Source of the DNA: Roseibacillus sp.
GTDB lineage: Bacteria; Verrucomicrobiota; Verrucomicrobiia; Verrucomicrobiales; Akkermansiaceae
Assembly (NCBI GenBank): GCA_051251855.1
Contig: JBPOGI010000007.1
Span: 224,001-288,000 of the forward strand
Length of the DNA: 64,000 nucleotides
Reading direction: 5' to 3'
Shown piece by piece: positions 7,818 to 23,700 of the stretch. Made by a program: the position numbers and the translations under genes. How positions within the stretch are numbered: position 1 is the stretch's first letter; the number at the start of each line of letters is the position of its first letter. The notes beneath the pieces were generated by a model. It was not told the DNA's origin, made no database searches, and was given only the letters and a program-made list of their open reading frames with translations.

Positions 7818-7946
7818 AAGAGAGAGAACGTGCCAGCTCTTTGCTTTCTTTGCCAGAAAGGAAAAAATATCCGCTGCTCGAAAAATCAACGTCTACCACC
7901 ACTCTTGAGGCTTGGCTCGAACCCGACATGTGGCAAAGCTGGCCCC

Positions 7947-8984
7947 ATGCCTCGCCTATCTATTACCGAACTCAGCCAACAAGCTTCGGAAACACCCTTG
8001 AGCGCAACCTTTCACGCCCAATTAGCCAACCTTAGTGAAAAGGAGACCAAATCTGGCAAACCGTATTTGGAAGCAGGGATGGCGGATTCCACCGGGGCCT
8101 TCACCCTGAAGGCTTGGGCAGACCATCCTCTTTTTAAAGAACTTCAGACCCTCCCAATCGGCACTGGTCTTGAAATCAGCGGTAAATTCACCCGCAACCA
8201 GTGGGGCATGGACGGATCCCCTTGGAAATTCAGTCTCTTGGACGAGTCCGCCAACCAAGAACTCCTCGCCGGAGATCCCGCAACCTTGGAGCGACAGAAC
8301 AAGGACTATGCAGATATCGACTCATTCGTGTCTTCCCTCAAAGACCCCCGTCTCGCCGCCCTCTCTCGCCGCTTTCTCAACGTCTTTGGAGAACGATTTC
8401 GCCGCACCGCAGCCGCTCGCCGCAACCACCATGCGCGTCGAGGTGGTCTAGTCGAACACGTGGCACAGATGATGCGGTCAGCCAATGCTATTGTGGGAGT
8501 TTACCCAGCACTCAATCGAGACCTCATACTCACAGGCGTTCTTTTCCACGATTGCGGAAAGCTCTGGGAAAACTCATACCCCGAAAGCGGCTTTACTCAA
8601 CTTCACCAACTTTCCGGCGAGATGATGGGCCACATTCCTCTCGGGATTGAGCTCGCTAACAAGCTCTGGCGCGACCTGCTGCTCTCTCCTGAGGCCGAAG
8701 CTTGGACCGATCTTTCTCCCAGTTCCGAAACCGTGCGCATTCACCTCCTTCATCTCATCGCCTCCCACCACGGCACTCACGAATTCGGCTCCCCCACGCT
8801 GCCACGCACACCCGAGGCCTTCGCGTTGCACTATATCGACAACCTTGATGCAAAATACGAAATGCTCAAAGACGCCTACGCGGAAGCCAATGAAGTAGTC
8901 CCAGGAATCCTCGAACGCCGCTTTCCCCTTCCCTCGAATCTGGTCGTTCCTCTGCCTTCTTTTAAAGGCCAAGACTCGACCTAA
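7947..8984 (+). CDS. OB-fold/HD-domain protein, YhaM/Cbf1-like 3'-5' exoribonuclease
   Basis: N-terminal KETKSGKPYL..ADSTG OB fold; AARRNHHA..GGLVEH, LFHDCGK, GHI, IASHHG..EFGSP, LHYIDNLDAK. Confidence 0.9.
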   Translation: MPRLSITELSQQASETPLSATFHAQLANLSEKETKSGKPYLEAGMADSTGAFTLKAWADHPLFKELQTLPIGTGLEISGKFTRNQWGMDGSPWKFSLLDESANQELLAGDPATLERQNKDYADIDSFVSSLKDPRLAALSRRFLNVFGERFRRTAAARRNHHARRGGLVEHVAQMMRSANAIVGVYPALNRDLILTGVLFHDCGKLWENSYPESGFTQLHQLSGEMMGHIPLGIELANKLWRDLLLSPEAEAWTDLSPSSETVRIHLLHLIASHHGTHEFGSPTLPRTPEAFALHYIDNLDAKYEMLKDAYAEANEVVPGILERRFPLPSNLVVPLPSFKGQDST

Positions 8985-9158: not shown

Positions 9159-9800
9159 GTGGTAAAACTCAAAATAGCTCCAGAATTCGCACCAGAAACT
9201 TCAGATTTATCTGAGCTTGATGACGCGACCCTCGTAGCTCAGTGCCAAGCTGAACTGCCCGATAACCTTACCGCTTATCGGGAGCTCGTAAAACGGTATG
9301 AGGGACTGATATTCAATACGTGCCGACGAGTGATCGGCTCTCAGGAAGACGCCGAAGAAGTTACTCAGGACACCCTTCTTCAGATCTTTCACAAGATACA
9401 TCAGTTCCAAGGACGCTCATCTTTTAAGACATGGCTGTATAAAATTGTGCACAATTACTGCCGTAACCGCATCTCTAAACTTGCAAGGAAACGTGAGGGC
9501 CAAAATTCTTACGAAGAACATGCCGCAAATGATGAGGACGATCGCGAGGCTAACAACCGACGCGCTGCGCTCTCTCAAGCCGTCGAGGAAGCCCTCGGCA
9601 AACTAAAAAAATCAGAGCGTGAGGTCATTGTGCTGAAGTTTATGTCCGGACTCACTCTGCAGGAAACTGCAGATGTTTTAGGCGTGAAGCTCAGTGCGGC
9701 CAAAATGCGACTTTATCGGTCTCTCGAGTCCTTTAAAGAAGCCTACTCACGAATTGATAACGCCCCCCCCGTCCCCAACTTCCATACCACAGATGACTGA
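9159..9800 (+). CDS. ECF sigma factor, SigX-like
   Basis: ELDDATLVA..AYRELVKRY..DAEEVTQD..FQGRSSFKTWLY and EREVIVLKF..LQETAD..LSAAKMR; resembles Pseudomonas SigX as recalled, and the neighbourhood fits. Confidence 0.9.
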   Translation: MVKLKIAPEFAPETSDLSELDDATLVAQCQAELPDNLTAYRELVKRYEGLIFNTCRRVIGSQEDAEEVTQDTLLQIFHKIHQFQGRSSFKTWLYKIVHNYCRNRISKLARKREGQNSYEEHAANDEDDREANNRRAALSQAVEEALGKLKKSEREVIVLKFMSGLTLQETADVLGVKLSAAKMRLYRSLESFKEAYSRIDNAPPVPNFHTTDD

Positions 9801-10044
9801 AGAAACATTCAACCCCGACGACTCCGTCTTCAACGACCTCTTTGCTGAGGCCGGCTGGAATGACGTTGCTAAGGCTCCCCCCAATGAGCGCAGAGTCGAA
9901 GAGATCACTCAACGTGCCATCTCCGAGACAATCGTCAAAGAGTCGAGCTCTTTCCTATTCCTAGGCTTCAGTTCTGCCCTTTCAGGGATTTTTGCAGCCT
10001 TCTTTGGCTGTATCAGCGACAACGACGAAGACTACAAACCTTGA
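9793..10044 (+). CDS. Small protein with hydrophobic C-terminal segment, CrfX-like (possible anti-sigma / membrane partner)
   Basis: ATG 9793 overlaps the end of the sigma gene; 83 aa with FLFLGFSSALSGIFAAFFG segment; lies between the SigX-like and CmpX-like genes. Confidence 0.7.
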   Translation: MTEETFNPDDSVFNDLFAEAGWNDVAKAPPNERRVEEITQRAISETIVKESSSFLFLGFSSALSGIFAAFFGCISDNDEDYKP

Positions 10045-10083
10045 TTTTCGCTGGCGACTCTCTCATTGTCGCCACGGAATATC

Positions 10084-11031
10084 ATGATCTTCGCGCAAAC
10101 TCCTCCGCCAACGAACCCTGCTGCCACTGAGTTGGTAGCGAAAACTGCCCAGACAATCCAAGGATCGGGTGAGCAAATCACCGACCCCCCCCCTGGATTT
10201 TCACTGAACTACATCTTTGAAAAACTCCGAGAAGCCTTTATTGAAATGGCTGACGGAGCGATCAGCGCCCTGCCCAATCTTGTCATTGCAGGCGTTCTCT
10301 TATTCGTCGGTCTCATTGCCGCCAAGGTCATCCGCGCCGTCCTCACCAGCACCTTCAAGAAAATCAATCTAGATAGTGCATTCGATAAGATGGGGCTCAC
10401 CGAGATTTTCTCCAAAATCGGTCTCAAGGCCGGCCCCAGCTCAGCAATCCCCAAGCTTCTCTACTGGCTCATCCTCCTCGCTTTCATTAAGGTAGCCGCC
10501 GACAAGGCCGGAATCGAAGACATCTCCACTCTCCTTGATCAAATCATGGCCTTCTTGCCCAAGGTGCTGACCGCCTCGATCATTCTTTTGGTAGGCTTCA
10601 TTGTTGCCGACTTGATTCAGAATGCAGCCTTCCGCTCGCTCGATAATATTGGGCTCGAATACGCAGGCAGCCTCTCTCGCATCCTTTTTGGCTTCATCTT
10701 CATTCTCGTTCTCACCGTTGCCTTTGCCCAATTAGGCATTGAGACCGAACTTCTCAACTCCTCTGTAAAGATCGTTCTAGCAGGTTTGGCCCTCGCACTT
10801 GCGATTGCGCTCGGCTTGGGATTGAAGACCCTTGCCGGTCACATCGTCGCAGGGGTCTATGCACGCGACCTCTACAAAATTGGAACCGAGATTCACTACG
10901 ACGACCTTCCGGCCAAGGTCTCTGGGGTAGGCCCCCTCACAACCAAGCTGACTCGGGACGATGGCACATTCGTGATTATTCCTAACACCATTATGGTCAA
11001 CGAAGTCATCCGCGGTCGCACCGAAAACTAA
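10084..11031 (+). CDS. MscS-related membrane protein, CmpX-like
   Basis: Two LP(N/K)..A..L..G TM-helix repeats, GLEYAGSLSRI, ALALAIALGLG..LAGHIVAGVYARDLYKIG, and a C-terminal MscS beta segment (GPLTTKL..IIPN). Confidence 0.88.
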   Translation: MIFAQTPPPTNPAATELVAKTAQTIQGSGEQITDPPPGFSLNYIFEKLREAFIEMADGAISALPNLVIAGVLLFVGLIAAKVIRAVLTSTFKKINLDSAFDKMGLTEIFSKIGLKAGPSSAIPKLLYWLILLAFIKVAADKAGIEDISTLLDQIMAFLPKVLTASIILLVGFIVADLIQNAAFRSLDNIGLEYAGSLSRILFGFIFILVLTVAFAQLGIETELLNSSVKIVLAGLALALAIALGLGLKTLAGHIVAGVYARDLYKIGTEIHYDDLPAKVSGVGPLTTKLTRDDGTFVIIPNTIMVNEVIRGRTEN

Positions 11032-11056
11032 CGTTTTCAGACAAAGAAAAAAACCG

Positions 11057-11084
11057 TGTGACTTATTCGCAGATCTGCGCGTCT
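11057..11084 (+). promoter_or_regulatory. ECF-type promoter, copy 1 (TGTGAC-N18-GTCT)
   Basis: AAACCG TGTGACTT ... GCGTCT; identical geometry in three copies; GTCT starts 12 nt before the repeat RNA unit. Confidence 0.7.
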
Positions 11085-11092
11085 GTATGAGT

Positions 11093-11166
11093 GTCCCAGC
11101 AATGGGACGTGCGTTGTTGTTCCCACGAGCGGGGGTTGGTTTCGACCAGCCCTCGCTCACTTTTTT
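11093..11166 (+). ncRNA. Candidate small RNA, copy 1 (74 nt)
   Basis: GTCCCA-GCAA-TGGGAC hairpin, linker GTGCGTTGTTGTTCCCAC, 14-bp stem with TTCG loop, then AC-T6. Confidence 0.72.
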
Positions 11167-11203
11167 AAGACACGTGCTCTAGACGAAAGTTTCTTAGAAA
11201 CGC

Positions 11204-11231
11204 TGTGACTTTTTACCAGGGCCGTGTGTCT
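11204..11231 (+). promoter_or_regulatory. ECF-type promoter, copy 2
   Basis: AAACGC TGTGACTT ... GTGTCT, 18-nt spacer. Confidence 0.7.
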
Positions 11232-11239
11232 ACATTCAC

Positions 11240-11336
11240 GTCCCAGAGATGGGGCATGTTATATCCCAGCAATGGGATGTGCGTTGTTGTTCCCACGAGC
11301 GGGGGTTGGTTTCGACCAGCCCTCGCTCACTTTTTT
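11240..11336 (+). ncRNA. Candidate small RNA, copy 2 (97 nt; duplicated 5' hairpin)
   Basis: GTCCCA-GAGA-TGGGGC followed by ATCCCA-GCAA-TGGGAT, then the same linker and terminator as copy 1. Confidence 0.72.
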
Positions 11337-11374
11337 CAAGATGCTTCCTTTTTACGCCGGCTGTCTAAAAACGG

Positions 11375-11402
11375 TGTGACTTATCCCAAGGTCTTCGTGT
11401 CT
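11375..11402 (+). promoter_or_regulatory. ECF-type promoter, copy 3
   Basis: AAACGG TGTGACTT ... GTGTCT, 18-nt spacer. Confidence 0.7.
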
Positions 11403-11410
11403 CTAGTTAT

Positions 11411-11484
11411 GTCCCAGCAATGGGATGTGCGTTGTTGTTCCCACGAGCGGGAGTTGGTTTCGACCAGCTCTCGCTCATTTTTTT
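11411..11484 (+). ncRNA. Candidate small RNA, copy 3 (74 nt)
   Basis: GTCCCA-GCAA-TGGGAT, same linker, terminator with compensatory A11452:T11469 replacing G:C, T7 tail. Confidence 0.72.
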
Positions 11485-11783: not shown

Positions 11784-14700
11784 CTAGAATTGCGGCAAGG
11801 GATAGATGTGAGACCTCTTGTCATCTCCCGGCAAGACTTTCACCATCACTGCTCGATGTGATTCAATCAAGAGGTCCGCGTCACGGTTCAAGAGTTGCGA
11901 GTCGTTCAAATCCAACCAGTAGTTGTAGGGTCCAGCGTCGGCCAACATGTATCCTAAATACCCCGTCTTATATTCGGTGACACCCACCTCATCAACAACA
12001 CGGTCGCCTTTCCAGAACAGAAGCTCGGAACTCTTCGTTGGAGAAGCTCCGCCATCAAAACCAGCAGCCAAGGTAAGATCCCGGCCATTAGCTCCCGCCG
12101 GCGATTGGTCCAAAGGCCACATCGCCCCTGTGAGGTTGAAGCCTTCGTTCATGGGAGCCGCTTGGTCATAATCAGCAACCATTCCGAAAGTGAACTGCTC
12201 CACTGGAGGAATCGTCGCGGGAGCAAGCGCATCCCCAGAGCTCTTGGGATGAATCCAATTTCCCATCGAAGGATCCAGACGGAGGCCTCCCTGGTCAACT
12301 TGAGCGAAAGGATCAGTCACCCGAATCCATTTTGTATCGGGAGCCGTGCCAACCAACATCAAGGTTTCGAATCCAGGATCACTCTTTCGAACATCATAGA
12401 AGAGCAGTCGGGTCGCATCCGCTGGATTTGAGTCCTCTTCGCCGGCAAATGTCGTCGTCTTATCGAACACTTCATCGATGGTGCGATAGCGAATCACTTC
12501 GTAGCTTGCTCCATTAAGTCCACTATCGGTGGGCAAACCATCGAGAGTATTCAGGGAGGCCACTGCGGTGTCAAAAATATCACTATCGTTGAGAAGAGAG
12601 ATCGTTCCAATACCACCGCCCAGAATATCGAAGCGGTGTCCTTCAAAAAGACCGCTCGTAATCTGGAGATACTTTTCACCATTGCTTCCGACAACGGATG
12701 ACAAGTCCACGTTCCCTACTGAGTCGCTAACATCTAAGATGATGTCTCCGGTTTCAGAGTCTGTCGCAAGGGTGAGAACCCCACTACCGAAGGTACCACT
12801 CAACTCAGGCTTCTCTTTAAAGGGAGAACTAAAGCTGAGGCACTGATAGTCGCCAAACAGATTGCACTGCCAACCAAAGGTCCTACTGTAGAAGACTTCA
12901 TCTGGAGTAATGGTCTCACTGCCGTCGACATCGATCTCCACCTTCATTCGAACAACTCCATTCTGAGGAGTCACCGGTCCGGTGGAATTTTGAATATCGC
13001 TATAGATAACTTTCTCGGCCTCCACTGGAACATCAGCGTCCGTGATGTTCACAGTAGGCGTGATGTCAGACAAGTCACTCCACACAGTCGGGGTATCCAA
13101 GGTCGCAGCCCCTTGCAGGGTGTAAGTCACATCATTGAGACCACCACGACGACGCATGAACTGGGCAGTGACGCTTCCATCAGGAGCCTTGGTGAGACAG
13201 AACTCGCCGTGTCCGGGAAGTCCATCACCAGGGTTTAGGCAGAAGGCATACTCCAGAGCATTCGGATAGATATCTCCATCAGGATTGTCAGCCAAGCCAT
13301 CGTTGGTTCCGGGGTTTGAGGTGTGGTCCAGCGCACTATCGTTCGTGTCTTGGAACTCGGTATAAGTGCCGGACTTTGGAGAAGTGAAGCCAAAGTCATA
13401 ACTCGCGTTGGCTCCTTCTCCTGATGGATCGGCCTGCTGGTCGGTGGCGGTTTGACCCTGGATGGCAATAGCCGGCGCTCCCGCAGGGTCGTTGCTATCG
13501 GTCAAACTGGTGGCCGTTCCACTTTCGATCACAGTAGGCTCGGTTCCTGTCGGAGTTTGCACGGAGAGAACATAAGTCGGCTCTGCGCCTGCCCCGTCTC
13601 CATTGTAGTCCTCGTCCATGAGCAGATTGCCAAAGTCATAGTGACCTGTTGTGTCTGTTACATCAGTGAGAGAGACAACCGTTCCGTCCGGATAAGTGAT
13701 GGTCAAGGTGACCACCGCACCTTCGATGGCAGGTTCGCCACTCTCTTGCACACCATCATTGTTGCTGTCGAACCAGACGTAGTTTCCAATCGCAGCAGGA
13801 TCCTTGTAGTAGCCAAAGTCGGCGGTGTCATCGTCGGGATTTCCTGAGTCGATGGTCACAGGATAGCCGCCGTCCTCCTGACTGTTGCCATCGGTGCCAG
13901 GATTCGGTCCCACGCTATGCCAGTAACCGTCGAGTTCATTGCCGTCGTCCGTCACCACCACGATGTAGTCATCGAATGGAAGGCCATCGAAGAGATACTC
14001 CCCATTCGCGTCCGTAGTGGTTGTTCCAACCGCCGGATCACCTGAGTCCACAATCCCGTCGCCATCGATATCGCGATAGAGCACCACGGTGACGCCTTCG
14101 ATTCCAGCTTCGCCACCGTCGAGAACTCCGTCACCATCGACATCATTCCAAATGGTCGTTCCAATGCTTCCTCCGTCAGTCGAAACATAACCGAAGTCTT
14201 GGTCCACATTATCCGGTGCTCCACTGGTCAAAGTGACCTCGCTCTCTGAATCAAGTCCCCCATCGTTGTCGAAGGTATTATCAAGGGCTTCCAAGACGCC
14301 ACCCGGGTCAAAGTTGCTGTCAGCAATCTTCACCGTGTAGTCGGCGCCGGCAGCACCGCTGCCATCATCAAGAGGTAAACCTCCGAAGTAGTAGCTACCG
14401 TCAGGACCGGTCTCGGTCACTGCGATGAGCTCACCTTGTTCATCGTAGAGTTCGACCAACACCCCGGGGAGACCCGTATCGGACTCGTTCTGGTCAGCGC
14501 CCCCATCGGCATCCAGCCAGACGTAGTTGCCAATCGAACCGGTCTCGGCCGCAGGCTGGAATCCGAAGTCTTGAGCATCGTCATTCCGCGTCGTGGCATC
14601 GGTGGTGTCTAAGCTCAAGGTTGAGGAGTCATCCGTTCCACCATCGCTTCCGCTCTCAGTTGGAACCGGACTAAACTCTGGAGGCAAGGTCGAGGTATCG

Positions 14701-17700
14701 ACCTGCACCGTGTAGGAGATGCCCGAGTCAGGATCGAGGTTCGGGAAATTGTAGTTTCCATTCTCGTCCGTAACGGTGGTCCAAGTCTCGGTTCCATCGG
14801 TCAAAGTAACCGTCACTCCAGCCAAGCCAGGCTCATTCGCATCTTGGGTGCCGTCACCATCAAGATCAGCATAGATGGTGTCGCCAATGCTACCGACAGG
14901 TTCACCAACAGTCGCGGGAGGATAGCCGAAGTCTTGGTCGAGGTCGACCGGTGTTCCGCTGCTCACAGTCACCGAGCTGCTACTGTCTCCATCATTCTCT
15001 GGGTCTCCAGTTGGAGCCGCATCATAGCCATCTGGCAAGGTCGTGGTATCGACTTCTACGGTGTAATCTCCTAGAGGTAACTCTGGGAAGAGGTAGTTTC
15101 CGTTCGAATCCGTAACCGTGGTCGCAATCAGAATCGTGCCAGTCACATCGTAGAGATTGACCGTGATACCGGGAAGCCCCTGCTCGCCGGCGTTCTGGCT
15201 ACCATTGGAATCGTCGTCCGCCCAAATGGTATCGCCAATCGCGCCCAAGGTTCCATCAGCTGGGTAGCTAAAGTCTTGCGCTCGGTTATCCGGAGCGACA
15301 TCCGTGAGAAGCACCGGACTCGAGGAGTCGTTATTGCCATCACTATCGTGTGTCGCAGCGGTCTGATAACCAGCGGGAAGAGTCGCGGTATCGACTTCGA
15401 CTACGTAACCACCGAGTGGCAGCCCGTCAAAGAGGTAGTTCCCGTTCGAGTCGGTCACTGTAGTTGCGATGATGTCGTTAGCATCGACAGAACCGTCGCC
15501 ATTCACATCATCCGCGAGGCCATCACCATCGTCATCGGCATAAAGATTGACCACCACATCGGCGAGCCCAGGCTCGTTCCCTTGAGTGGACTGGTCGCCT
15601 CCGCTGCTATCGAGGTCTCCCCAAACGGTATCGCCAATGGAACCGAGGGCTTCACCTGAAGTGTAGCCAAAGTCCTGATCGTCTACGTCGGGAGTTCCCG
15701 CATCAATCGTAGTCGCGCTCAAGTTCGGAGTGCCTGCGACGCCATCGGCATCATAGGTTTGCTCAAGGCCACTTAAGACTCCATCAGTATCGTTCACCCA
15801 GACGATGTAGTCATCATAAGGCAAGTTATCGAAGATGTAGCTTCCATCGCTGGCAGTAGTGGTCGTGTTGATGATGGGCTCTCCCACATCCCAAACTCCG
15901 TCTCCATCGAGGTCATCGATCAAGCTCACCGTCACTCCGCCGATCCCTGGCTCACCCGCATCTTCTACCCCGTCTCCATTGAGGTCATTCCAAACGGTGT
16001 CGCCAATGCTTCCGAGAGGAGCAGTCACTTCCGGCTGATAGCCAAAGTCCCCATTGAGGAAGACATCTCCTGGAGCCAGCACGATAGGCTCGCTCTTACC
16101 ATCATTGGCAGAGAAAGCGGTATCCGTTTCTGCAAAGTGATCCGGATCTCCCGTCTGAAGGTAGTCGCTTCCCAGAATATCATGACTCGCAGTCGCGCTA
16201 TCGGTCACCTCAACGACATAGGCATCAGGAACCAAACCATCGAAGTAGTAGCGACCATTGCTATCGGTCGTCGTCGTGCCAACAAGGTTATCATAGACGC
16301 CATCACCATCATGATCATTGTAGAGGCTCACCTCAACACCCGCGACGGGCGCTTCGCCATCATCTTGAATGCCATCACCATCGGCATCGATCCAGATGAA
16401 GTCTCCCAGAGCCGCGACCTCCGCACCGGCAGTCGCCGTCGGGTCATTCACCTCACCCGCAGGATTGATGTTGTAACCAAAGTCCGCCGTAGAGTTGTCC
16501 ATCGGCTCAGTTCCACCCAGAAGCACTGGGTAGCCATAATCACCTGCACCGGGGTCATCGGAATCATCCTGATTGCCAAAGTCGCCACCCGAATTGGTGA
16601 AAGGGCTTTGGGTAAAGCCAGTGGGTAAGGTCGTCTCATCGACGTTCACATAATACTCCCCCGCAGGAAGGTCAGTGAAGAGGTATCCCCCATCGGCATC
16701 CGTGTAGGTAGTAGCCACCACGTTGCCGTCGCCGTCATAGAGGTCGACTTTCACATTCGCGAGACCCGGCTCACCATCATCCTGATAGCCGTTGCTGTCC
16801 TCATCATGCCAAATGTAGTTACCAATCGTTCCAACCGGAGGACCAATGAGTCCAAGGTCAAGGTCGGTATCGCTATCACCCGCTGCCAAAGTGACCGTCT
16901 GGGTACGACCCGTCATCACATCCGCATCACTGTCGGTGTTGGTATCGGCAACCGTATCATCGCCATCGGCGTTCTGCTCGGTAGGCCCGTATCCGTAAGG
17001 CAAGGTGCTGTAGTCAAATTCCACATAGTAGTCACCGGCCAAGAGGTCATCGAAGAGGTAGTTTCCTTGGGCATCGGTCGAAGTCACGCCAACCACCGTG
17101 TCGGTGGCCGCATCATAGACCCGCACAGTGACACCCGGAACTCCGGACTCGCCGGGATCCTGAAGGCCATTGCCGTTGCCATCAATCCAGACAAAGTCAC
17201 CTAGGGAGGCCAAGTCTTCACCAAAGTTGAAGTCCACTCCGCGCTCACCACCCGCAAGGGTGATTCCGGTAATGGTATCCGAACCTGCCGTCCCTTGGTC
17301 AGCAGTAGTGCTGCTGGGAGAAGCAGTGGTATCAACAAGGTCCCCTGCGTCCGTCGTGGTCGAGAACCATCCTTCAGGTTGCGTCTCGGTGACATCGTAA
17401 GTTCCAGGATTGATTCCCGCGAAGCTGTAGTTGCCATCGTCATCGGTGACGGTGGTCAGCTCAACAGCGTTCCCGAAGATATCGGTTCCAGTCAAAGTGA
17501 TGGTCACGCCAGGAATACCCGCCTCGGTGAGGTCGAGGTTTCCAAGATTGTCCGCACCGGCGTCGCCATCGGCACGGTCGTCATCGTGATAGACCGTTCC
17601 GCTCAAGCTCGCGAGTTGCTCTAGAATCACATCAACCTCTGCTGGGTCGCTGTTGTCGCCTAAGTCGGTCTCCGCACTAGTCGTTGCAATGTTCGCAATA

Positions 17701-20700
17701 TTGACCTGAGTCTTCTGCCAATTGGAAGTCATGTAGGCCTGGTCAACCGTGAAGGTCACGGTGACGGAACCAGTAGCTCCCGGCGTTAAGATTCCTGCGT
17801 TGTAACTAAAGTCATTGGCTGAGCCAAGTGTGCCCGGCGTTGCCGACTGAATCACCAGACCATCGGGCAAGGTATCCGAGATGACCACGTCCGCGGCATC
17901 GCCGTTACCATTGTTGCCATAAGTGATGGTGAAGGACCCACCTCCGTATAAGTCGACCACGGCGGTATCAGCCACCTTCTCAATCCAGACGTTAGCCAAG
18001 CCATTGGCATCGGTAATAACGGTCAGCGCGCTGTCATCGTTATTATCGTAATCGCTCTCCTGTCGATCGTTCGCAATCGTAACCACGTTGTTGAGGCTGT
18101 CGCCGGCCACGCCACCAGTTTCGGTGACCTGCACAGTAAAGCTTCCACTCGCTCCGGTCGCTTGGTCGCCGAGATTCCAAATCAAGGCCGTCAAACCACT
18201 GCCCTCGTAATCCGCATCTACAGTTGGTGAGCCACTCGAGCTCACGTAAGTCGTATTAGCGGGTAGAATATCGGTCACCACTGCGTTTAGCGCTCCCTGT
18301 GGTCCGAGGACCTCCCAAGCAATATCATAGTTGATGGTCTCGCTTGCTCCCTCTTTAACCGCTCCGGTGTCTACCAGCTTGCTCACAGCCAAGTCTGTTA
18401 GGCGCAGGTTGATGGAATCTTCCGCCGTATTATTGGCGGTGTTGTCATCGATCTCTGGGGTGCTCGTCGCAATTGAAATGGTGTTATCAATAGTGCTCTG
18501 ACCAACGGGCGCAGGATCGTCCACCATCACCTGGAAGGTGAAGCTAGGCACTTCTTCCACCACATAAGTCGCACGCCAAGAATTGAAGCAAGCCATCGCT
18601 GACTCATCGGTGCTGGTCATGGTCACCCGCAAAATCATTTCCGAATTTGCAATATCGATAGATGAGATATCAGCAAAACCGTCTTCGAGTTCGGCCGGAC
18701 CAAAGAGAGTCGTGGTGTCGGCTGCGTTTCTCAACTCAAACGTCGTCGTTACCGCATCGTCTGCTTCGACGCTGACAAGAAGTCGGTCCCATTTCGTCAA
18801 CGTTCCTGCGGCAACGACCGGATAGTCTTCAGTGACAATCGTCTCGTATGCTTCGAAACCTGAACGCAATTTCGCAACAATGACTCCTGGGCGAGTGGCA
18901 TCACTTCCTTGGCTCACTATTCCGAAAGTGGCAGTCGCGCCCCCCATACCATCGTAGACATAAGTTGGATTTGTGATTCCAGGTGAATAGTTCACCCCTG
19001 CGTTGAGCTGACTTCCGTAGAAGAGCTCCAGAATGCCGTCTCCATCGATGTCGTAGCTATTCATTCGCTGCCCACCATTTTGACCTTGGCGGAAGATGTA
19101 TCCATTTCCTTCGATGGGACTCAGCTTACAATACTCCCTCAGAGTGCCATCGGCATTGGGGTAGAAAATGTAGGTGGCTCCACGGTTGCTGGCATTTCCT
19201 GATGTGTTGACTGAAGAGGTAATATCATCATCGTTCGCCGCCGAGACCGCAAACTCACTCAGTCCATCGCCATCCAAATCGCCGACAGCCGCAACTCCGT
19301 ATCCGAAGTTATCATTGGCATCCAAAGCCAGAGCGGGAGTGGTTAGATTCGAAATCTTACTCACCTTTTTAAGTTCACCCGTAGTCTCGAGAAGAACGAT
19401 ATATGCCGCCCCTGTCGCAGTATATCCATCATCGTCACTCGAAGCTCCAACCACCAGGTCCTCCGCTCCGTTGCCATCCAAATCTCCAACAAAACTCAAA
19501 TCGAATCCGAACAAGTCGCCGGAATCCAAATAACCACTCAGTTCCGCACTACGAGCCGTCTGCATCTTGATAAAACTCGTAACATCTCCTGTCATGTGGC
19601 CATTGATGTCTCTTTCCAGCCAGAAGAAGTAGTATCCTCCCCGCGAAGAATCCAGGCTCACATCTCCTGCAACCAAGACGGAATCACCGCTACCGGCAAA
19701 GTCCTCAATGTAAGTGAGTCCTCGTCCAATTCCCACGGAACCCTGATCGTCAGCTCCGGTCACACCACTGGCGGTAACGAAGCCACCAGTTCCAGAAACT
19801 ATCTTCTTCAAGTCCTTCAACGATCCATCCGTATCTAGGAACAAGAGATAGACCGCGCCACGGCCCACGTTTCCAACATTCGTTCCATAGGCTCCAACCG
19901 CGAGATCAGGGATTCCATCGCCGTTCACATCGCCGATTGGCTCCAAGGAATATCCAAAATAGTCAAAGGCTGAGAGACCGGCCAAAAGACCACTCGCGGC
20001 AGCCGTTCCCTCCGCAATTTCAACGCTAGATTTCACGGAGCCATCAGCATTCATGAAGTTGATCAGAACGGCTCCTTGATTCACATTGACCAAGTCCATC
20101 TCATTGGATTCATCCAAATCACGGAACGGAGAACCGACTGCGTAATCAATCACGCCATCATTGTCGATATCACCCACGGCATGATAGGTGACTTGATGGG
20201 AGCGTGTGTGCGCTCGATCATCGGTAACATTGGGGATATCATTATCAACGTTTGTGTCAAAGGCGACGTGTTGATCGTAACCAGCATCGAGTGCGCTCAC
20301 TTCAGACAAAAATGACTCAACCTCCACTTTAGGCAGTGGTTCGAGACAAAGAACAGCGCCAGGGCTTCCTGCCGGCTCTTTTCTAACAAAGACCCGATGG
20401 ATGGTGTCCGCAGAATCATCACCCAATACATTGTCCAGTTCCCAGTCATCACCATTGGCACGAATGGCCCAGTTGGCTACACCATCCTGATAGAAAGGAA
20501 GTTCGGTGAGCGCATAGTCCCCCTCATCATCATTCTCCTCTGTCGCAAGGGCCGGAATATTCGCGGTATGGCCAGGCACACCAACCCAGTTTCCATCGTA
20601 ATGAAAGTGATTGAAGTCGCCTGTGCCAGTCTTCACATAATCATTGCCCCTCATGAAGTCATCGGTCGTCCGAATGTTTACCACTCGCTCATGATCGGAA

Positions 20701-23700
20701 GTCCGTCCTTGGAACAGCATCGTGTCAAAACCAAGGGCGGCAGCCAACCCATTGCCAGCATGACCCCAGTTCTCTGACGCGCTCTCGTCATCACCCAAGG
20801 CGTTGGAAGCAAAGAGCGGCAAGTCGTTCGTGCGCACTGCGAGTTCGGGATTGGTTCCTCCCGCATGCACGTAGTTGAGAATCATCAACCATCCACCACC
20901 ATCGGTATCACCATCGACGTATCCCTGGAAGGACTTACCATCAATATTGAACCAATAGACTCCGGTAGCCACCCCTCCGAGACCAGCAATGTCAGTGAAG
21001 GGATCATACTCAGTGCCCGTGCCAAATCCATTGCTACCAGCAAAGGTCGCGGGAGCGGGAAGATTGTCGAAGAGGATTTCGAACCCAGTGGGGTCAGAAG
21101 GATTGGGGCTCCAAATAGCAGTAGCACCATCAGGAACCATAAGAGAACCCGGAACGTAGCTGGTGCCCGCTGGAATGACTTCTGAAATCACCACATCGTC
21201 AGCGGCCGCTTTACCGGTGTTATTATACTCAATGGAGTAAGTGAGAACTTCTCCCGCTTCGGTCCAAGTCTCGTCTTGATCGGACTCATTGACCACGCTC
21301 TTGCCAATACTGATCTCAGGGCGATAGATGCGGGTGGAGACTTCGTCGGCATTGTTCGCAAGGAAATCTTCGGCGGGGTCGGCATCGGTTTGGTTATCGA
21401 CAACCAATGTCGTATTGTTCGTCACGGTATCACCATCAGCAGCAGCGTCAGAGACATAGCCCTGGAGGGTGAAGGTGACAATCGCTCCTACCGGCACTCC
21501 GATATTGCGATAGTAATCAGTATCAACGGCGTTAGCAGTGGTGCCGAGATACCAGGTCACGGTATCTCCTCCAGCGGGAGAGAGATTGTCCAAGGTCGCA
21601 CTAATCGGGAAAGTCACGGGAGATCCGGTTCCATCTTCCAGAGTCACACTCGCGCCATCATCATCGGTCGCCTCAACTGTTGCGAAACCATTGAAGGCAG
21701 TCGGATGCGGAACAAAATTGGCCGGCAGAACATCTTCCACCTTCACCCCGTAGGCAGTCTGAGTTCCAGTATTGGTCAGCTCAATGGTGTAGGTAATCGG
21801 GTCGCCAGGACGCAAACCGGGAACACTCCCCTCGGCACTAGCTGACTTCGCAATCGCCATATCCACTCCGGGAATTTGGGTCATCGCGGTGGCTGCATTG
21901 TTGTTTGGTCCATCGGTTGGATCCTCAGGGTCGTCACTCTCTTGAGCACTGGTGGAAATCGTAGCGGTATTGGTGTAAGCCGTTCCAGGAGCGGTGCCCC
22001 CCGGAATCGAAGTGCTCACCAGAATATCAGAATCACCGGCATTGGCAGGAACAGTTCCCACCTCAAAGGCAATGAAAGTGACAGTCGCTGTCGGGGTAGA
22101 ACTCCAACCGAGGCCAGAAGTCCCGGGCGTGAAGACCGGCGCGGCGGGGGCATCGGAATAGTAGGCTACCACTCCAGAAGGAAGAAGCACGCTATTGAAA
22201 GTCAGACCCGACGGAATGGCATCAATGATGTAAACATCAGGAGCTTCGTTATTCGTTCCATTGCTGTAAGAGATCGTCCAAACGACAGTCTCTCCAGCTT
22301 GGGCAACGCTCACTGCAGACTTGGTGATTTTAGGATCGGGGAATGGAAGCACCACTTCTTGCTCATCGGTGTTTCCATACTCGTTATCCTCCACATCAGA
22401 GGTTGTCACCTCTGCCACGTTCGTCAGAGTATCGCCTGCGGCACCTGAGACATCGACCTGATAACTGATGAAAACATCGGCAGACTGCCCAGGGAGAACT
22501 CCCATGGCACCGCCATCTTGGGTCAAAGAGGTCCAATTGAGAACACTATCACCCCCAGTAGGGTCATCTAAAATAGCATAGCCCGGTGTGAGCATCTGGG
22601 TGCTCCCTTCCACGAAGGTCATTCCCGCAGGCAAAGTGTCGGTGATGACCACGTCGTTGGCCTCATTCAGACCACGGTTAGCCACCAACAGAGTAAAGGT
22701 GATGCGATCTCCATTCTTGGGCTCGGTCGTGCTGGCAATTTTACTGAGGGTCAGGTCCGGGTTGGCCACGGTAACCGGATCACTATCGCTCACAACGACA
22801 GCAGAGCGTGCGTTCGAAGCAAATCCCTGCACGGTATTGAGAACCTCAGTGCCTGAAGCGGTGGTGGAAAGCGGAACCACAACGAAGCTAACACGCCCTC
22901 CCTCACCGGTGAGCAAATCGCTCTTCAGCCCAGGAGAACCAGCAATAAGAACTTCAACGATCGATGAGCCATCTGCGTTCGTAGTGATGGTAACATTAGG
23001 ATCAGCCTTGATATCAAGCTCACCGGCGGTCTGACCATTCGCAATCGCAACGTCATTCCACTCATGCCGAACTCGGCGAAGAGTAACATCCTTAGGAAGA
23101 TAGTCGGTAATGGTGACAATATCATCGGTGAAGCCCGAGTTGTTAATATAGTCCACATTCCAAATGAAGCGCTCACCCGCAGTAACGAGTTCCTTGTTGC
23201 TAGACTTGGAAATTTGAAGACCAGGGAAAGATTCAACCGTGGTGCGCACCTCATTGCCGACAGCCTGCAAGTTGGTGTCGGAGAAGATGACGAGCTCGTT
23301 GAAAATCACGGTGCCCTCAGGAGAGCCATCGGTTCCCACCGTTGTGCCGTTGTCATCATTGACCACGGTGAAAGTCACGGTCTTGTAGGCAGCCGAGACA
23401 TCAAGCTGAGGAGGCGAAAGAGTCGGGTCGTCTACCTTATAGGCAATCCAAGTTGTTTGGTCGCCGAAGGGACTTGTCCAAGTATCGTCAGATGGATCAC
23501 TTGGCGTGCCATTGTCATCCTGAACACCAGGAGTGAAGTTTGCACTAATCACGCTGAAATCGACCGGATTGAGAACACTGATTTGGTTAGCCGGCATCGA
23601 AGGTGGCAACTTATCAGTGAACCAGATTTCCTCGCCATTAGGCGCAGTCGCTTCTGAGAAAGTCGTGCGGAAGGGAATGCGATCCACCACCCAAGAATTG

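Follow-up and report, generated by a model that had tools for sequence, protein, structure and literature searches.

What are the three closely similar units that stand in a row behind the operon of an extracytoplasmic function (ECF) sigma factor in the verrucomicrobial bacterium Roseibacillus sp. (Akkermansiaceae), and what could they contribute to the response that this sigma factor controls? The units lie in a 64,000-nucleotide stretch of contig JBPOGI010000007.1 (assembly GCA_051251855.1, positions 224,001 to 288,000 of the forward strand), here called the window, downstream of genes for a SigX-like sigma factor, a small putative anti-sigma factor and a CmpX/MscS-like channel protein (sigX, cfrX and cmpX). 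A preliminary description, made from the sequence alone, took them for sibling small RNAs (sRNAs) with promoters of their own. Here we describe comparative evidence that they belong to a small-RNA family that is very probably real, new and restricted to one lineage. The reading that we prefer, with a probability of about 0.6 on the sequence comparisons reported below, is that of a trans-acting sRNA, present in three sibling copies on SigX-type ECF promoters, which would act as the repressor arm of the sigma factor.

The element AAAC-NN-TGTGACTT is present in each unit, TGTGAC and GTCT are separated by 18 nt, and GTCCCA begins 12 nt from the start of GTCT, with 8 nt between GTCT and the first G of the hairpin; a purine 35 nt downstream of the -35 G is the predicted transcription start. 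There follow a 6-bp 5' hairpin with a GNRA loop, an 18-nt linker that is identical in the three units, and a 14-bp stem with a UUCG cap and a U-tail, all at the places given in the preliminary description, and the predicted RNAs have its lengths of 74, 97 and 74 nt (Table 1). The single-stranded part between the 5' hairpin and the terminator, GUGCGUUGUUGUUC, is referred to below as the core. The earlier account needs amending in its details: the layout is shared, but unit 2 carries an additional, duplicated 23-nt 5' hairpin; the UUCG cap is present in all three stems, but it is closed by a U-A pair and the loop varies in homologues; and the promoter spacers, described as unrelated, are in fact diverged duplicates, identical at 8-10 of 16 positions. 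The pairing-preserving change that it noticed in the terminator, from G11134:C11151 to A11452:T11469, is real, and the three RNAs fold with z-scores of -5.6 to -5.9, none of 200 shuffles being equally stable. Between units, the RNA bodies are identical at 70-72 of 74 positions and the 44-nt promoter regions at 27-32, with both boxes retained; selection therefore appears to act on the boxes and on the RNA.

No family in Rfam 15 reaches its gathering threshold at the triplet, a scan that the preliminary description had proposed; the best match, ctRNA_pGA1, scores 24.5 bits against a threshold of 45 and covers the terminator only, and 14 further loci, 13 of them homologue loci, gave no Rfam match. 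Relatives do occur in other genomes. BLASTN returned matches in 10 of 61 genomes, two of which (G003 and G021) had weak matches of 25-28 nt and were left uncounted. Scanning every species genome for the pattern yielded 35 loci, 18 of which were dropped as chance matches in unrelated taxa lacking the hairpin and terminator layout; the 17 others, all verrucomicrobial and with hairpin, core and terminator, stand directly behind sigX-cfrX-cmpX (12 loci), before leuC (3), near a contig start (1) or directly after yhaM (1, L075). With a covariance model comprising promoter, hairpin and core (R1), only the three units were found within the window, and 31 of 150 Akkermansiaceae genomes were matched. 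Two of these were set aside, G079 (a match to the promoter alone, in front of a protein gene) and G164 (E 0.099), which leaves 29 genomes; a SigX-like sigma factor is present in 26 of them, counting one genome with only a 42% paralogue. Of the 150 genomes, 26 thus combine the RNA with a SigX-like sigma, 3 have just the RNA, 9 have just the sigma, and the 112 others lack both. Elsewhere in the phylum sample, R1 matched none of 149 genomes, although the model contains the promoter and diverged relatives could escape it. Viral contigs gave no RNA match and plasmids no SigX relative at 1e-25; in a metagenome scan there were four close sigma loci among the 80 matches listed, with the RNA at one.

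The homologues preserve the structure. Pairing is kept at 99% in the 5' hairpin, where 3 of 6 pairs have changed on both sides, and at 93% in the terminator, where 13 of 14 pairs have done so; in a slid alignment it falls to about 50% or less. Loops vary freely, some genera have an extra hairpin inserted, and U-tails are weak in some homologues; the core is nearly fixed across genera, its centre having been demanded by the search. Tandem arrays of the whole cassette recur (four copies in L068, two each in L077 and L112), copy number ranging from 1 to 4 between species and most genomes having a single copy, so the triplet is a local amplification and its triplication is incidental. Comparison of these loci shows that the promoter, the capped 5' hairpin, the near-invariant and unpaired core rich in G and U, and the intrinsic terminator travel and multiply together as one predicted, self-contained cassette. 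Three direct repeats might also suggest a REP/MITE-like element, a CRISPR-like array or a chance duplication of a terminator, and the preliminary description had named a dispersed repeat as an alternative. Across the 4.96-Mb genome, however, neither BLASTN nor a motif search returned any copy beyond these three, which share one locus; together with a single copy in most other genomes, fixed promoter geometry and covarying stems, this leaves that explanation largely refuted, with next to no likelihood remaining.

Which sigma factor, then, transcribes the RNA? Of the 37 units taken from SigX-bearing genomes, 34 have GTGAC at a distance of 35-36 nt upstream of the hairpin G, and 36 have TCY between -12 and -8. 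Because the motif had been demanded by both pattern and model, these counts are partly circular, and tests independent of them were sought. In the first of these, the motif GTGAC-N18/19-NTCY precedes a glsB-like gene at 5 of 10 SigX-bearing and 1 of 19 SigX-lacking loci (Fisher 0.011) and a lipoprotein gene at 5 of 8 and 0 of 13 (Fisher 0.003), both values being overstated because kin are not independent; in genomes with the paralogue only, it was seen before the glsB-like gene in 0 of 1 and before the lipoprotein gene in 1 of 2. The two genes, the nearly leaderless glsB/transglycosylase-associated gene (L190:424-745) and the gene for a 154-aa lipoprotein (L230:828-1338), are candidates for a coding arm of the regulon. 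A second test came from a sister family (f3), in which the SigX clade occurs in 39 of 118 genomes. Of the 20 examined among these 39, 12 have the motif no more than 300 nt upstream of sigX and 10 have it immediately after the sigX operon, compared with a background expectation of 0.014 per 300 nt. In geometry the motif resembles the AlgU consensus, GAACTT-N16/17-TCTNN in the part of PMC7641640 available, and it is unlike the TTG...TAnnnT promoters that inspection by eye showed ahead of tRNA genes in the Roseibacillus genome. The claim that these are separate sRNA genes under the adjacent SigX-like sigma is therefore well supported comparatively, by the conserved cassette, by the covarying stems, by the absence of dispersed copies and of an Rfam match, and by a promoter whose occurrence goes with SigX-type sigmas in both families; SigX very probably drives the RNA.

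Several observations pull the other way. No such promoter stands upstream of sigX in 22 Akkermansiaceae loci, nine family genomes have the sigma factor and no RNA match, and in one genus (g11) 9 of 42 genomes have the RNA, downstream of argB, and SigX was found in 0 of the 8 tested. The g11 copies and the missing motif before sigX would be expected if the RNA were real but transcribed by a different ECF sigma or by sigma70, its linkage to sigX being historical; that the L075 genome holds just a 42% SigX paralogue, and that the motif also occurs 342 nt upstream of another ECF gene in the Roseibacillus genome, would fit as well. On the other hand, the motif precedes sigX itself in the sister family and tracks SigX before two protein genes, the 42% paralogue retains its region 2 and region 4 motifs, and of 5 genomes with an orthologue of the other ECF gene, just 1 has the motif there. 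The g11 promoters have themselves changed: GTGAC is retained by 5 of 9 copies, TTGGCA serves as -35 in two, the -10 boxes are nearer the sigma70 form (YAnnnT in 7 of 9, compared with 7 of the 37 units from SigX-bearing genomes), and several cores are degenerate. This shift, in a single lineage, fits a rewiring after loss of SigX. We accordingly regard transcription by another sigma as distinctly improbable, and SigX remains the probable driver.

The SigX paralogue just mentioned is an orphan (42-48% identity, no cfrX or cmpX) found in four genomes of one genus (L028, L029, L030 and L031), in two of which it is the sole SigX-like sigma found; an apparent autoregulatory motif before it was rejected, as it overlaps the last coding part of the preceding gene. 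In G019 (L032) there is also a second operon of sigX-like type, more distantly related (34% identity), in which a small ORF and a channel-like gene occur; it has no RNA match. In L085 and in L058/L071, sequences with partial complementarity to the core are located at the sigX start or immediately upstream of it, a hint of feedback; they are not conserved in the window's genome.

In the sister family, the promoter behind the operon precedes different RNAs, which form hairpins with C-rich loops. One candidate (L393:3010-3159 and L397:2060-2207, both on the minus strand, L398:3467-3630, L406:4336-4490 and L410:3790-3900) has an invariant C-rich loop in a covarying stem, is tandemly repeated in L397 and has no Rfam match. 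Homology of the G/U-core RNA to it was rejected: R1 gives 14 bits from the promoter part only, and the invariant parts differ. Further units of promoter and C-rich-loop hairpin occupy the slot behind the operon in L407, L408, L392, L404 and L284:5203-5340, apparently representing other RNA types. On the same motif, the Roseibacillus genome has a terminator-ended unit of about 230 nt (L186:880-1150, that is, C10 178680-178950), a candidate second SigX sRNA whose final 70 nt or so are identical in G004 and which precedes genes for an ECF sigma and a vWA protein.

In its layout the RNA resembles a base-pairing sRNA. The core is mostly unpaired in predicted ensembles. Of 3239 starts called heuristically in the Roseibacillus genome, whose leaders are G-poor, 6% have a Shine-Dalgarno-like word, and searches of this genome (95% complete) found no Hfq, ProQ or CsrA, the controls for Hfq and ProQ being positive. 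Perfect 10-mer complements of the core lie at 11 start regions, 7 of them of signal-peptide-like proteins; there are 3 in gene-body controls and 1.4 with shuffled cores, and controls preserving the AAC repeat have a mean of 6.0, with 1% reaching 11. When sites with a core complement and an ATG were inspected (50 of 61 in RNA-bearing genomes less three self-matches, and 40 of 68 in RNA-lacking genomes), likely true starts made up 15 of 47 and 4 of 40, respectively, and signal-peptide-like products numbered 6 and 0, differences that leader composition may confound. Other results speak against targeting of this kind. At the 9-mer level the AAC repeat explains the signal, with 29% of controls as high; the raw counts of core complement plus ATG do not differ, at 61 (56 non-self) in 27 RNA-bearing and 68 in 27 RNA-lacking genomes; RNAduplex gives no excess at start regions (67, compared with 53-142 for shuffled seeds); no target family recurs between genomes in the target searches; and heuristics were used to call start codons and signal peptides, in genomes that, being kin, are not independent. 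Pairing to A/C-rich translation starts thus appears the likeliest action, with modest support, and a base-pairing repressor is somewhat favored by these comparisons.

The same target pattern could be fitted by a multi-target repressor of fast-evolving exported proteins or by an RNA that binds protein. A SigX-dependent RNA of the latter kind might be a decoy or sponge for an RNA-binding protein or a partner of YhaM, with copy number setting the titration capacity. It would be in keeping with a core that is near-invariant across genera with no conserved mRNA target found, with repeated tandem amplification, and with yhaM as a conserved neighbor, directly after which the cassette stands in L075. 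That possibility seems unlikely, given that CsrA was not found in this genome, that core complements are modestly in excess at starts and that the RNA lies away from the yhaM locus in several lineages. The GGGA of the RNA moreover falls in a stem, not in a loop, which is not the arrangement of an RNA that titrates CsrA/RsmA.

A potential short coding sequence (GTG CGT TGT TGT TCC, 'MRCCS') is present in the unit, and the first codon is GTG or ATG in 43 of 47 units; with three loci preceding leuC, this could point to a leader or mini-peptide, or to an attenuator or 3' element of the operon. A peptide is unlikely because the CGT and TGT codons show no synonymous change and 3 of 47 units have a stop at codon 4; of the 47 units, just 10 have an ATG in the alternative frame. 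A leader is disfavored by the downstream genes, which differ from locus to locus and frequently lie on the opposite strand, and by the promoter that each copy has of its own. These readings together are very improbable.

The mechanism that we propose for the sRNA as a repressor arm would run as follows. The SigX-like sigma factor, by strong inference, reads GTGAC-N18/19-NTCY, and membrane or osmotic stress sensed via the CfrX- and CmpX-like proteins would therefore switch the RNA on. With less certainty, the core would pair with AACAACAACGC-like A/C-rich stretches just upstream of start codons, in a bacterium mostly without Shine-Dalgarno sites and without Hfq, ProQ and CsrA, and this pairing would reduce the translation of several proteins, for the most part exported ones. 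Such repression would give the sigma factor a repressor arm, and extra copies would raise the dosage. A broader proposal, which we put forward tentatively and at somewhat less than even odds, is that the SigX-CfrX-CmpX modules of Verrucomicrobiales have a fixed slot behind the channel gene, filled by lineage with unrelated RNAs (G/U-core in Akkermansiaceae, C-rich-loop in the sister family), that the G/U RNA silences non-Shine-Dalgarno starts of exported proteins with no known chaperone, and that the motif is the SigX-type recognition sequence.

The genes upstream of the array are listed in Table 1. The sigma factor scores 146 bits with the SigX model, under the equivalog cut-off of 194 and yet the highest of 97 models; as in the SigX/ECF102 arrangement it is adjoined by the PF05552 gene and the 83-aa ORF, in conserved synteny, and its counterpart in Roseibacillus persicicus (L073) is 87% identical. 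The 83-aa ORF has no Pfam or NCBIfam match, and its neighbors in the Atlas are unnamed. The yhaM-like gene, an upstream neighbor conserved by synteny, probably has its real start near 7947. Converging on the RNA array from the other side is a gene (11784-26474, minus strand) for a 4896-aa exported, repeat-rich surface protein; a weak match to the promoter motif (score 13.1) lies about 170 nt upstream of its called start. Elsewhere in this genome, some ten tRNA calls are packed at C10 114076-115600, possibly an integrated tRNA array, and a tRNA-Sec call was made on C1.

Table 1. Features of the window around the sRNA array (positions are those of the window)
Feature	Position	Strand	Remarks
yhaM-like OB/HD 3'-5' exoribonuclease gene	7830..8984	+	PF01966; NF010007 129.6 bits, under cut-off 460
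SigX-like ECF sigma factor (ECF102-like), probable cognate sigma	9159..9800	+	best NCBIfam model SigX PRK09640
83-aa ORF, overlaps sigX stop	9793..10044	+	CfrX-like putative anti-sigma by position only
CmpX/MscS-like mechanosensitive-channel membrane protein	10066..11031	+	PF05552
Promoter 1	11057..11084	+	motif positions; -35 TGTGAC at 11057, -10 GTCT at 11081
sRNA copy 1, 74 nt	11093..11166	+	GTCCCA at 11093; hairpin 11093-11108; linker 11109-11126, of which single-stranded core 11109-11122; terminator 11127-11166; U-tail ends 11166
Promoter 2	11204..11231	+	motif positions; TGTGAC at 11204, GTCT at 11228
sRNA copy 2, 97 nt, duplicated 5' hairpin	11240..11336	+	GTCCCA at 11240; linker 11279-11296, core 11279-11292; U-tail ends 11336
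Promoter 3	11375..11402	+	motif positions; TGTGAC at 11375, GTCT at 11399
sRNA copy 3, 74 nt	11411..11484	+	GTCCCA at 11411; linker 11427-11444, core 11427-11440; compensatory A:U terminator pair; U-tail ends 11484

The predicted RNA belongs to no catalogued family, and a literature search on sRNAs of Verrucomicrobia and Akkermansiaceae and on SigX-linked sRNAs found no description of it, PMC4477172, in the part available, being concerned with rsmY/rsmZ; its design is akin to the non-coding arm of sigmaE. The sigmaE-dependent sRNAs (MicA, RybB, MicL; VrrA/MicV; FoxI/FoxJ) are likewise the non-coding arm of an envelope ECF sigma, and FoxI/FoxJ of Fusobacterium function in a host without Hfq or ProQ, according to the portion of PMC11005410 available. 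Unlike these, the RNA described here has no sequence family match, depends on a SigX/ECF102-like sigma rather than RpoE by our reading, is encoded in the sigma locus and tandemly amplified, and has a G/U-rich core rather than a C-stretch, its targets being candidates. The closest known module is SigX-CfrX-CmpX (ECF102) of Pseudomonas aeruginosa, which in the accessible part of PMC7826278 also combines SigX with an adjoining small putative anti-sigma and a channel gene; here the order is sigX-cfrX-cmpX and no oprF adjoins. That part of the source records ECF102 in Bacteroidetes and Gammaproteobacteria only, calls its motif not conserved and, for the P. aeruginosa module, contains no SigX-transcribed sRNA. 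PMC7641640 (again in part) describes the SigX consensus as lacking a precise definition, and the accessible text of PMC4362757 mentions a SigX motif but does not spell it out; earlier SigX work may already contain one.

Near-identical tandem copies are also known from PrrF1/PrrF2 and similar siblings, as far as the sources available go; there the regulator and the sequence differ, and the family described here has 1 to 4 copies, depending on the species. GcvB of enterobacteria has a G/U-rich seed too, and is longer, Hfq-dependent and GcvA-controlled. It silences ACA translation enhancers (PMC3879156, in part), a comparable seed logic, and the RNA here has no Rfam match to it or any other family. 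GibS of Bacteroides pairs by a conserved single-stranded seed around start codons, in a phylum without Shine-Dalgarno sequences (PMC7366714, in part); its sequence differs, its seed is extended (30-50 nt) and it lies outside an ECF locus.

Our findings provide a well-bounded, testable family of regulatory sRNAs in Verrucomicrobiota, and they would extend the design of an ECF sigma plus a repressor sRNA to SigX-type sigmas linked to mechanosensitive channels. For a sigma group with a motif described elsewhere as undefined, they also offer a concrete promoter consensus and a mini-regulon, with the proviso on earlier SigX work given above, as well as a model for how an sRNA may act in bacteria without Shine-Dalgarno sequences, Hfq, ProQ or CsrA.
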